Below are positions 1,301-1,883 of a stretch of 46,491 nucleotides of DNA, one piece after another. The notes beneath the pieces were generated by a model. It saw only the letters and a list, made by a program, of their open reading frames with translations. It did no database searches and was not told the origin of the DNA. Source of the DNA: Escherichia phage Chlobot; sequence record PP925838.1. The stretch is one strand, 5' to 3'. Numbering within the stretch: position 1 is the stretch's first letter; every line of letters starts with the position of its first letter. The translations under genes were made by a program, and so were the position numbers.

Positions 1301-1573
1301 ATGGACAATAGCACCATTTCTCTACAGGAGTTGCTCGACTGCATTTCCAGGCTTCGGGATGATGTAAATGCCCTTACTGTCGCATTTTCATATCTGGCAT
1401 TCTCAATTCCCAAGGAACAAATGCAACCAACACTGGCATCGCTCCAGCTTGAATCACTCAACCCCAAATGGTCCCAGCAACAACAAAATTCTTTCAAGTG
1501 GCTGGCGGTATTACTGGAAGAAAAATATGCTGGTGAAATTACCATTTCGGCGGAGTCTTCAGAGAACCAGTAA
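1301..1573 (+). CDS. Hypothetical small protein (90 aa), antisense orientation inside the lysis cassette
   Basis: ORF with GAGAGG ribosome-binding site 6-7 nt upstream of ATG 1301; no family recognised; 3' end overlaps the DUF1327-like gene by 35 nt, convergently. Confidence 0.3.
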   Translation: MDNSTISLQELLDCISRLRDDVNALTVAFSYLAFSIPKEQMQPTLASLQLESLNPKWSQQQQNSFKWLAVLLEEKYAGEITISAESSENQ

Positions 1574-1883
1574 TTCTTCCCGGTAGCTTTCCTTTGTAGG
1601 TTATCCACACATTCTGCGCCTCTAAAATTATGGGGCGCTTTTCCGGCGACAGCTCATCCCCTTCACATAACCCGGCAGCAACATCCAGGAAGACCTGTCT
1701 GATGCTCCTTCTGGCTGCTGCCTCATAAAACTCCAGCGCGGCACCTTCAACACGGTCCAGCGAGATGTCCAGGTCAAAAATTTCACCGTCAAAGCGTTTT
1801 TTGTCCCGTAACGCTAAAGTTACCGTAACTTTATTCTCAAAATTGCGGATCCCTTTCACAATCAGTTCATAGTTTTGAGTCAT
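1539..1883 (-). CDS. DUF1327-like (YdfR-like) protein between holin and endolysin
   Basis: 114 aa ORF starting 5 nt after the holin stop; recalled similarity and identical position to Qin prophage YdfR (essQ-ydfR-rrrQ). Confidence 0.55.
   Translation of the reverse strand: MTQNYELIVKGIRNFENKVTVTLALRDKKRFDGEIFDLDISLDRVEGAALEFYEAAARRSIRQVFLDVAAGLCEGDELSPEKRPIILEAQNVWITYKGKLPGRITGSLKTPPKW

Follow-up and report, generated by a model that had tools for sequence, protein, structure and literature searches.

The question raised by this locus is what two small genes, one of them on the opposite strand, are doing between the holin and endolysin genes of a phage lysis cassette. The window, that is, the whole stretch of DNA analysed, comprises 46,491 nucleotides of Escherichia phage Chlobot (PP925838.1). 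A preliminary description of this DNA had reported a holin of the phage-21 type and a SAR-like endolysin separated by a same-strand 114-aa gene and an opposite-strand 90-aa open reading frame (ORF), which converge and overlap by 35 nt. It had considered the arrangement unusual, and had suggested a lysis-timing regulator or a small toxin/antitoxin-like module. These genes belong to the lysis cassette of a lambdoid prophage located at the DLP12/argU site, and their layout, including the 35-nt overlap, was confirmed (Table 1).

Table 1. Features of the lysis cassette, in window coordinates
Feature	Position	Strand	Basis or remarks
Rz-like spanin	207-665	-	PF03245, E 2.2e-39; PGAP 'lysis protein'
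Rz1 lipoprotein gene, embedded in Rz	260-451	-	PF06085, E 2.4e-20
SAR-like endolysin (lysozyme family), 177 aa	662-1195	-	PF00959, phrog_7
Presence/absence segment, ~290 bp	1252-1543		Cassette comparison; contains candidate promoter, ribosome-binding site (RBS) and the greater part of the 90-aa ORF
Candidate promoter and Shine-Dalgarno	1256-1294	+	TTGAAT, 19 bp, TACAAT; GAGAGGA
'Shadow' ORF, 110 aa, on the strand opposite the 90-aa gene; rejected as a gene	1276-1608	-	Stops in 9/14 homologues
90-aa ORF, ATG start	1301-1573	+	PHROG 2411
35-nt overlap between the 3' ends of ydfR and the 90-aa gene	1539-1573		ORF coordinates
ydfR, 114 aa	1539-1883	-	PF07041 (DUF1327)
S21-type (class II, phage 21 S-type) holin, 71 aa	1888-2103	-	PF04971

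The assignment of the cassette to the phage-21 type with a SAR-like endolysin was borne out by profile searches. The holin matched PF04971 ('Bacteriophage P21 holin S') at 121 bits (cutoff 26, E 2e-35), covering positions 1-63 of the 64-position profile; it was also assigned to phrog_9876 and phrog_20, both holin families, and is named essD in the PGAP annotation of a 99.3% identical genome. With methionine as both residue 1 and residue 4 (MKSM), its N-terminus predicts the two-start (holin/antiholin) type, and its hydrophobic core reaches a maximum of 1.72 at residues 36-54. The endolysin, labelled rrrQ or lysozyme by PGAP, matched PF00959 at 87.2 bits (cutoff 22.3, E 1.4e-24). Its residues 9-27 are hydrophobic and Ala/Gly-rich (Kyte-Doolittle 1.87), which is compatible with a predicted SAR-type anchor. 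A search of the lysis region against Rfam returned no RNA family.

The 114-aa gene follows the holin gene on the same strand as reported. Its ATG begins at the fifth base past the holin stop codon, with 4 nt between, and a GGAG lies upstream of it within the 3' end of the holin gene. The product matched PF07041 at 142.8 bits (cutoff 25), with residues 1-112 aligned to positions 1-92 of the 93-position profile, and the ORF corresponds to WP_001468348.1, 'YdfR family protein', at the same coordinates in genomes that are 100% and 99.3% identical. The YdfR protein of the K-12 prophage Qin is 81% identical to that of the window over residues 1-74. Past the sequence '...SLKTPP', the C-terminus of YdfR reads KW* in cassettes with the 90-aa ORF and ESQP* in those without it, or continues for 62-69 further residues. 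By hydropathy, neither YdfR nor the 90-aa protein is hydrophobic over a stretch long enough to span the membrane (maxima 0.88 and 0.69), and a sequence-profile search of the PDB gave nothing for either protein. The structural model of YdfR was poor (pLDDT 58.6) and had no significant fold match in the PDB (best E 0.14); weak PUR-alpha-like fold matches were rejected as evidence.

The N-terminal domain of Qin YdfR (residues 1-72) has been reported to bind the N-terminal/catalytic half of RNase E, and the protein has been reported to co-purify with RNA (PMC13232886). In the available part of that report, few transcripts were changed when Qin YdfR was overproduced, and no growth arrest is described for it, in contrast to YegJ (PMC13232886). 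The RNase E result was obtained with the Qin protein; the YdfR of the window diverges after residue 74 and would be linked to that result by homology of the interacting region only. Text searches of the literature returned a single paper on DUF1327 and no paper in which ydfR, essQ and rrrQ are all named.

As for the 90-aa ORF, it could be a non-coding chance ORF which has been propagated by annotation pipelines. In favour of this, the 90-aa protein had no family match in Pfam, NCBIfam or PADLOC, nor was any literature found under its accessions, 'ybl58' or phrog_2411. Moreover, nonsense and frameshift alleles turn up occasionally, at 3 of 85 viral-contig loci, and 94-aa frameshift variants occur as well. 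However, the pattern of variation in this ORF is that of a coding sequence. Its pN/pS was 0.32, with an excess of variable positions at the third codon position (50/79) over the second (24/79), and its frame was open in all 14 diverged homologues, down to approximately 30% identity, whereas every other frame was broken in at least one of them. The 110-aa shadow ORF on the minus strand was rejected as a true gene, since its frame contains stop codons in 9 of the 14 homologues; its similarly low pN/pS (0.27) is explained by wobble positions held in common with the real 90-aa frame. The 90-aa protein matched phrog_2411 over its entire length (E 1.6e-59), residues 1-90 aligning with all 90 profile positions, and the ORF corresponds to WP_000370550.1 at the same coordinates in the 100%- and 99.3%-identical genomes. 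With the Shine-Dalgarno sequence GAGAGGA at 1288-1294 before its ATG, it has translation signals of its own, as the preliminary description had stated.

The AlphaFold2 model of the 90-aa protein consisted of three helices with a pLDDT of 77, and the protein is acidic, with a net charge of -6; it is thus a predicted soluble, cytoplasmic three-helix protein. Foldseek searches with this model gave no match at E<=0.001 in the PDB (best 3.5) or BFVD (best 0.45). A HMMER profile recovered relatives of 81-97 aa, and a profile search gave members from Citrobacter, Serratia, Sodalis, Chania and Gibbsiella. The Escherichia group and the Serratia/Sodalis group were aligned by hhalign at 98.9% (E 1.9e-17), and the motif AFSYLAFS...FES is common to at least five genera. 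The Serratia/Sodalis proteins (89-97 aa) belong to the same length class as the window protein and have the core motif AFSYLAF...ES.N; however, they are only 30-40% identical to it, and their genes are chromosomal, syntenic and outside prophages. The conserved length, the motif and the confident three-helix prediction all argue against a chance ORF, a reading which we regard as extremely improbable. Judged from its evolution, the 90-aa ORF is a real gene.

The genomic position of the homologues was also considered. In S. marcescens and S. proteamaculans, the gene lies between dinI and bssS and forms its own transcription unit past the dinI intrinsic terminator. A link to the SOS response via the dinI neighbour was rejected, since this terminator separates dinI from the homologue, and no LexA box was seen by eye either in the Serratia spacer past the dinI terminator or upstream of the window ORF. 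The copy in a Citrobacter prophage is located upstream of the holin gene, is reversed, and overlaps tail-to-tail with an upstream minus-strand ORF. A scan of genome contigs with peptide patterns that are specific to Escherichia gave a single locus, in Escherichia ruysiae.

The claim that the arrangement is unusual was not supported by its prevalence. Among 5426 complete E. coli genomes, 4314 had matches to the ydfR-like sequence of the holin-endolysin interval, 1129 contained the 692-bp region at a coverage of at least 80%, and 1133 (approximately 21%, BL21 and ST131 included) contained the 90-aa ORF, which in these genomes is always labelled 'hypothetical protein' beside a 'YdfR family protein'. 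Annotated copies of the ORF include those of CP53, BL21, ST131 and 21F61 and of the phages vB_EcoS-783R2 and phiSTEC1575-Stx2k; the layout is annotated by PGAP, and the protein is in PHROGs. The cassette layout is therefore ordinary, being a standard annotated variant of the E. coli lambdoid lysis cassettes, and the structural finding carries little weight because of this. The preliminary description had named a universally conserved and annotated arrangement with an untranslated plus-strand ORF as the outcome that would count against it. Half of this outcome is seen: conservation and annotation of the arrangement are widespread, but the ORF on the plus strand does look translated.

The two genes do not share the same distribution. 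The ydfR-containing query matched 8515 places and the 90-aa ORF 1339, and approximately 84% of the places matching the former were without the latter. At the level of genomes, approximately three quarters of those matching the ydfR region were without the 90-aa ORF, and only 2 of 100 phage records with ydfR contained it. ydfR occurs without the 90-aa ORF in K-12 Qin and in strain TUM1586. Conversely, the 90-aa ORF is intact at two loci (L093 and L094) where ydfR has been cut to its last 40 codons, and the copies beside iha, on IncF plasmids, in the Citrobacter prophage and in Serratia have no ydfR (the loci counted as lacking ydfR were L085, L086, L093, L101 and L097-L100). The iha-linked copy was rejected as proof of independent mobility, since it retains the endolysin-proximal spacer and is a decayed prophage fragment.

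Comparison of the cassettes revealed what distinguishes them. The gene order of K-12 Qin (essQ-ydfR-rrrQ-rzpQ/rzoQ) is the same as that of the window, with an S21-type holin, ydfR, lysozyme, Rz and Rz1. The comparison with Qin which the preliminary description had proposed thus placed ydfR in the same position, but the reverse 90-aa gene is missing there. Furthermore, Qin ydfR encodes 103 aa with a different C-terminus and overlaps the start of rrrQ by 4 nt. In contrast, the architecture of the Rac-region remnant of BL21 and of an ST131 prophage (essD, YdfR family protein, hypothetical protein, rrrQ) is identical to that of the window, the 35-nt overlap included. Over the 692-bp cassette, their identities to the window are 98.6% and 91.9%, respectively, and they differ from it only in the flanking prophage context. 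The window copy resides in the DLP12/argU-site prophage with a porin gene, in reverse orientation, between Q and the holin gene.

The segment of approximately 290 bp which distinguishes these cassettes is replaced by 19 nt in the cassette of strain TUM1586, which is otherwise 97-98% identical, and it is missing from K-12 Qin. Its GC content is 42.8%, compared with 52% in the endolysin and Rz genes, a modest gap. Over its final ~10 codons, the 90-aa ORF is antisense to the ydfR 3' end, a sequence also present in cassettes lacking the ORF, and the corresponding protein tail is predicted to be disordered (pLDDT 40) and is unconserved in remote homologues.

Phage late regions are known to contain accessory genes with their own expression signals (morons), such as lambda bor and lom and DLP12 nmpC, whose expression has been mapped and whose products are envelope proteins of known phenotype. 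The porin gene of the window is a direct local example of this type. The 90-aa gene resembles bor, lom and nmpC in being small, lower in GC and present or absent between collinear phages, and in opposing the late operon and adjoining the lysis genes. It differs from them in that its product is a predicted cytoplasmic, acidic protein rather than an envelope protein and its promoter is only a candidate. In the sequences compared, the 90-aa gene shows two features of morons, namely presence/absence polymorphism among collinear phages and a base composition distinct from that of its neighbours.

With regard to its expression, the best sigma-70-like pair upstream of the ORF, found in a relaxed scan, was TTGAAT (1256-1261) and TACAAT (1281-1286) with a 19-bp spacer, while a standard promoter scan of positions 600-2700 with 16-18-bp spacers found nothing. 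The sigma70 promoter proposed in the preliminary description holds as far as the hexamers and their spacer are concerned; however, the standard scan misses it, and its -10 element crowds the Shine-Dalgarno sequence. Only 14 nt separate the end of the -10 from the ATG, and a start site 6-8 nt past the -10 would land on or after the Shine-Dalgarno sequence, so that the candidate promoter and the 'good RBS' fit together poorly. Over diverged copies, the -10 and the Shine-Dalgarno sequence are conserved, whereas the -35 is not. Downstream of the ORF, only a weak hairpin and four T's were seen, at 1616-1642 inside ydfR, and no clear terminator was found. Transcripts of the 90-aa gene may thus continue, in antisense orientation, into ydfR and the holin gene, with a possible regulatory effect.

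We consider it probable that the cassette contains a cargo slot with two unrelated passengers, ydfR and a moron-like 90-aa gene, and that the overlap between them is a by-product. This slot, flanked by the S21-type holin and SAR endolysin genes, would then vary in its cargo. The Q-dependent late promoter would presumably drive ydfR together with the lysis genes, and the small cytoplasmic product of ydfR may be a late-expressed modulator of host RNA metabolism. By analogy, this role appears more likely than that of a lysis component, since the K-12 homologue has been reported to bind RNase E and to co-purify with RNA. The 90-aa gene would be a self-contained, reverse-oriented accessory gene, or moron, which may be expressed independently from the prophage, and the reverse orientation would permit its expression without read-in to the endolysin and spanin genes. 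On this reading, the overlap results from the extension of the ORF by ~10 poorly conserved codons into the 3' end of ydfR; it is not a designed sense/antisense device. The 90-aa gene represents a clearly coding small-protein family without a Pfam entry, which occurs in approximately 21% of complete E. coli genomes, on IncF plasmids beside adhesin genes and on the Serratia chromosome. Both genes bear on whether prophage lysis cassettes carry cargo acting on host RNA metabolism or lysis control.

It may also be speculated that convergent transcription from the promoter of the 90-aa gene, head-on to the late transcript and yielding RNA antisense to ydfR and the holin gene, damps leaky expression of the holin and endolysin in the lysogen or tunes the timing of lysis once the prophage is induced, with the protein being secondary. 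The gene sits inside the late operon between holin and endolysin, always opposes the lysis genes in Escherichia, and does so again in Citrobacter, where it overlaps a minus-strand ORF; the lack of a strong terminator past the ORF points in the same direction. Nevertheless, the protein is under purifying selection, the chromosomal copies of Serratia and Sodalis at 30-40% identity have nothing to be antisense to, and the ORF stays intact in decayed fragments without lysis genes. Moreover, the ydfR region is without it in approximately three quarters of the matching genomes, and reversal is also the simplest way for a prophage-expressed gene not to drive the endolysin. We therefore judge this explanation to be unlikely. 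As for a toxin/antitoxin-like or defence module, which would work through protein-protein or RNA-protein interactions, the two genes are suitably adjacent, overlapping and small, they co-occur in 1133 genomes, and the reported binding of RNase E and RNA by YdfR would be a plausible toxic activity. However, the genes are convergent rather than arranged in a co-directional operon as in type II modules, and each is widely found without its partner, only two of the 100 ydfR-carrying phage records having the 90-aa ORF; an obligate toxin/antitoxin-like pair is not supported because of this separate occurrence. PADLOC (E<=1), Pfam and NCBIfam gave no toxin/antitoxin or defence match, with DUF1327 as the only family found, and by their hydropathy maxima neither protein resembles the small membrane-active toxin of a type I system. 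In addition, the available part of the report on Qin YdfR mentions few changed transcripts upon overproduction and does not describe growth arrest. The toxin/antitoxin-like module, which we regard as very unlikely, is largely refuted by the independent occurrence of the two genes.

It is unlikely that the 90-aa gene is a lysis-safety or lysis-timing element drawn from a host small-protein family, whose convergent transcript, antisense to ydfR and the holin gene, or whose protein would restrain expression of the holin and endolysin or the activity of YdfR and RNase E, either in the lysogen or soon after induction. If this were true, it would be functional and not incidental that the gene is repeatedly placed against lysis genes in prophages of Escherichia and Citrobacter. 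As a separate observation, the reversed, tail-to-tail geometry itself recurs in the Citrobacter prophage, and convergence as such could be selected.

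On re-check of the sequence and its ORFs, all coordinates given in the preliminary description of the lysis region were accurate (see the table below). The assignment of a phage-21-type holin was confirmed by its Pfam match. For the proposed SAR-like endolysin, the lysozyme matched PF00959, and its N-terminal residues 9-27 form a segment that is uncharged, rich in Ala and Gly, and compatible with a SAR-type anchor. The ATG of the 114-aa ORF (ydfR) is the fifth base past the holin stop, the gap between this ORF and the lysozyme gene is 343 bp, and the 3' ends of ydfR and the 90-aa ORF overlap by 35 nt (1539-1573). 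Over its first 9 kb, the window shares 99.3% identity with a lambdoid prophage of E. coli 21F61, for which PGAP gives the order lysis protein, lysozyme, hypothetical protein (WP_000370550.1), YdfR family protein (WP_001468348.1), essD, porin, and quuD, the porin being ompC-like and reverse-oriented. The remainder of that record holds lambda-like early genes, followed by intD, tRNA-Arg, and folD, and this end is the DLP12 attachment site.

Features of the lysis region and of its surroundings in the window
Feature	Position	Strand	Basis or description
Rz	207-665	-	Pfam, Rz/Rz1 = PF03245 and PF06085
Rz1, inside Rz	260-451	-	Pfam, Rz/Rz1 = PF03245 and PF06085
Lysozyme, 177 aa	662-1195	-	PF00959 (Pfam)
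Hairpin	~1242-1281	both	RNA z about -2.8
Insert relative to TUM1586	roughly 1252-1543		~290 bases
Candidate -35	1256	+	TTGAAT
Candidate -10	1281	+	TACAAT
90-aa ORF	1301-1573	+	PHROG 2411 end to end, E 1.6e-59
114-aa ORF (ydfR)	1539-1883	-	PF07041 DUF1327, 142.8 bits vs cutoff 25 (Pfam)
Terminator-like hairpin, inside ydfR	1616-1642		7-bp hairpin and four T's
Holin, 71 aa	1888-2103	-	PF04971 'Bacteriophage P21 holin S', E 2e-35 (Pfam)
Terminator-like site	2227-2248	-	8-bp GC-rich hairpin and T-run
Porin gene	2676-3773	+	ompC/nmpC-like
Q antiterminator gene	3962-4345	-
Lambda cIII thermoregulator element	12610-12668	+	Rfam, 88.5 bits
IS009 RNA family	21008-21206	-	Rfam, 205 bits

The layout had been regarded as unusual, which the genome counts contradict. 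The 692-bp stretch 1196-1887 had matches in 4314 of the 5426 complete E. coli genomes and was covered to at least 80% in 1129 of them, and the 90-aa ORF alone reached at least 80% coverage in 1133. A ydfR gene between holin and endolysin is the prevailing state among E. coli prophages, and the reverse 90-aa ORF is a frequent variant of this cassette. ST131 is among the carriers of the layout, and BL21 has it in a Rac-region remnant (98.6% identical). Among the E. coli carriers, the 90-aa ORF is always annotated 'hypothetical protein' and adjoins a 'YdfR family protein'. Near-identical genomes have both proteins annotated at the corresponding ORF coordinates under existing RefSeq accessions, the 90-aa family is a PHROG, and more than a thousand complete genomes have the arrangement annotated; it is therefore already known as annotation. 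Two deposited phage genomes, vB_EcoS-783R2 and the Stx2k phage phiSTEC1575, have the 90-aa gene. It was present in 2 of 100 YdfR-encoding phage records versus 1133 of the 4314 ydfR-region genomes (about a quarter); the difference may reflect sampling, as Stx phages dominate the phage set, or an enrichment in resident or defective prophages.

The cassette of strain TUM1586 (holin, 116-aa YdfR, and lysozyme) is otherwise 97-98% identical to the window, in which the insert stands in place of 19 bases. Within the insert, whose GC content is 42.8%, compared with 52% in the endolysin and Rz genes, lie codons 1-80 of the 90-aa ORF with the RBS and the candidate promoter. The final 10 codons are the antisense of the ydfR 3' end, a sequence also present in cassettes without the ORF, and the tail which they encode is not kept in remote homologues. 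K-12 Qin differs from the window in lacking the insert, and its ydfR overlaps rrrQ by 4 nt. Directly past the YdfR residues '...SLKTPP', the junction was found in at least three states: KW-stop followed by the reverse gene, ESQP-stop, and a C-terminal extension of 62-69 residues, which yields the YdfR forms of 176 and 183 aa. Therefore, what separates the ydfR core from the endolysin is a variable cargo slot. The extension reads …ALRSEKDDIE…FVKIFEEGKSLQ, with one variant present on 463 contigs, and its breakpoint lies past residue ~111 (window ~1545), at the junction where the window has the reverse gene.

A comparison of 14 copies with nucleotide divergence of up to 25% indicates that the plus-strand 90-aa ORF is a gene. 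Scored over the 79 codons outside the ydfR overlap, the pN/pS of the frame was 0.32, and codon positions 1, 2, and 3 were variable in 31, 24, and 50 of the 79 columns, respectively. The frame was open in 14/14 homologues, including the Citrobacter, Serratia, and Sodalis copies. Frameshifted alleles were present among the protein-search matches, and nonsense alleles were rare (3 of 85 viral-contig loci). That the ORF is not a gene is almost certainly wrong. An antisense 'shadow' ORF of 110 aa (1276-1608) had a pN/pS of 0.27, because the wobble positions are common to both frames, yet stops interrupt it in 9 of the 14 homologues and it was rejected.

The 90-aa protein had no match in Pfam, NCBIfam, or PADLOC. 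Searched exhaustively with an HMMER profile, 1.84 billion representatives gave only 20 matches, which include proteins of 81-97 aa with the common core ELL..I..L...V..L..AFSYLAFS....E.....I..L.FES.N. In a profile search of a 5.8-billion-protein collection, relatives were found in Citrobacter, many Serratia species, Sodalis, Chania, Gibbsiella, Chimaeribacter, and Acerihabitans, and the profile-profile comparison of the Escherichia set with the Serratia/Sodalis set gave a probability of 98.9% (E 1.9e-17, 80 columns). The AlphaFold2 model (mean pLDDT 77) has helices at residues 8-34, 38-52, and 59-77 and a disordered tail at residues 80-90. The protein has a net charge of -6, and sequence analysis found no membrane segment in it.

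It had been suggested that ydfR and the 90-aa gene could form a toxin/antitoxin-like module. However, their distributions indicate that the two genes are not a pair. The ydfR-containing query matched 8515 places and the ORF 1339, so that ~84% of the query places were without the ORF, as were all but the two phage records mentioned. Conversely, the ORF is intact in two cassettes (L093 and L094) in which ydfR is cut to its last 40 codons, and, without functional ydfR, in a decayed fragment that adjoins iha (L085). By tblastn, plasmid copies were found in 75 records, 70 of them conjugative, and on IncF plasmids the ORF lies downstream of an aah/aidA-like autotransporter operon. In a Citrobacter prophage it is likewise on the opposite strand, upstream of a different holin; the homologue of Serratia marcescens and S. 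proteamaculans is chromosomal, between dinI and bssS, and that of Sodalis is in an unrelated chromosomal neighbourhood. No significant trace of ydfR was detected by tblastn in the iha, plasmid, Citrobacter, Serratia, and Sodalis loci. The convergent orientation, the independent distribution, and the absence of a toxin, antitoxin, or defence signature argue against such a module, which we consider highly improbable.

The diverged copies on the chromosome (L085) and on IncF plasmids (L086, L110, and L111), which show 62-65% protein and about 75% nucleotide identity, are located ~300 bp away from adhesin genes. In about 70 conjugative plasmids the copy comes after an aah/aidA-like pair of heptosyltransferase and autotransporter genes, and the chromosomal iha copies are divergent from iha. 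Since the iha copy retains the endolysin-proximal spacer, the adhesin-linked copies are prophage fragments in which only the 90-aa ORF is left intact. The Serratia homologues (L097-L100, 5001-5282; 92-93 aa, 33-40% identical) share the neighbourhood rne, ABM-domain gene, pyrC, dinI, homologue, bssS, and solA; dinI and bssS are adjacent in E. coli K-12. With its own RBS downstream of the dinI intrinsic terminator, the Serratia homologue forms a separate transcription unit. The gene may have been present ancestrally in Yersiniaceae and been taken up by phages.

Taken together, the lysis cassette of the window is of the standard S21 type, and its variable slot likely carries two independent passenger genes. 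Of these, ydfR would be a late-operon accessory gene, probably acting on host RNA metabolism, and the 90-aa gene a moron-like gene in reverse orientation, from a host-related family of small proteins. The reverse orientation would be expected where a gene must be expressed without driving the endolysin, and the 35-nt overlap would be a by-product of its position. The porin gene of the window, between Q and holin, has the same reverse arrangement. In the main alternative, the 90-aa gene would restrain or time the lysis genes through convergent transcription or antisense RNA. Downstream of the ORF, the only terminator-like feature is the hairpin inside ydfR, and transcripts may read through as antisense RNA to ydfR and the holin gene. 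However, the conservation at the protein level in non-phage contexts weakens this explanation, and we regard it as unlikely.

The promoter and RBS proposed for the 90-aa gene were upheld in part. Upstream of the ORF, the two hexamers with their 19-bp spacer form the best sigma-70-like combination, and GAGAGGA precedes the ORF as SD; both the SD and the -10, which is TATAAT in the copy at iha, are kept across the diverged copies. Nevertheless, the combination failed the standard scan (16-18-bp spacers) and the candidate -35 is not kept. Moreover, the candidate -10 ends 14 nt upstream of the ATG, so that a normal start site would leave most of the SD out of the mRNA and the two signals do not go together easily. 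Transcription may in fact start further upstream, within the endolysin-proximal spacer, which is conserved. The hairpin which overlaps the putative -35 is kept in ST131 with a longer stem of different bases (CAGCCTG/CAGGCTG vs GCCTG/CAGGC), and may act as an operator or else belong to the endolysin leader as an RNA element. In one Stx2 prophage (L091, 2928-3003), an IS66-family element abuts the -35 position directly upstream of the gene; the -10, SD, and ORF are intact, and the downstream lysozyme is displaced from its usual place.

The only functional literature on YdfR that we found is a 2026 paper (PMC13232886). It reports that the N-terminal domain of Qin YdfR binds the catalytic half of RNase E and co-purifies with RNA, that few transcripts changed upon Qin YdfR overproduction, and that the Qin gene cluster was silent under standard conditions. 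The YdfR of the window shares 81% identity with that of Qin over residues 1-74 and diverges beyond; its model from AlphaFold2 was of low quality (pLDDT 58.6), and no fold match to it was significant. What remains of interest is that an unnamed small-protein family, widespread and clearly coding, adjoins this recently reported RNase E binder.

Several further observations were made. In two Stx2 phage loci (L092 and L107, the latter phiSTEC1575-Stx2k; 2165-3803), the S21 holin, ydfR, and the 90-aa gene are followed by no lysozyme; a second, unrelated lysis set, consisting of two other holin-family genes and an M15 peptidase, lies downstream, and some Stx2 phages therefore carry two holin systems in tandem. 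The porin gene, directed against the late operon, is a second reverse-oriented accessory gene of the same late region, and DLP12 likewise has one. The terminator-like site 124 nt upstream of the holin start, the sole one in 600-2700, is a candidate for the late-operon terminator for Q action or for the end of an upstream transcript. Two elements scored above the Rfam gathering score: the cIII thermoregulator element, within the early region of the prophage, and the IS009 RNA, which lies in the part of the window that is host DNA.
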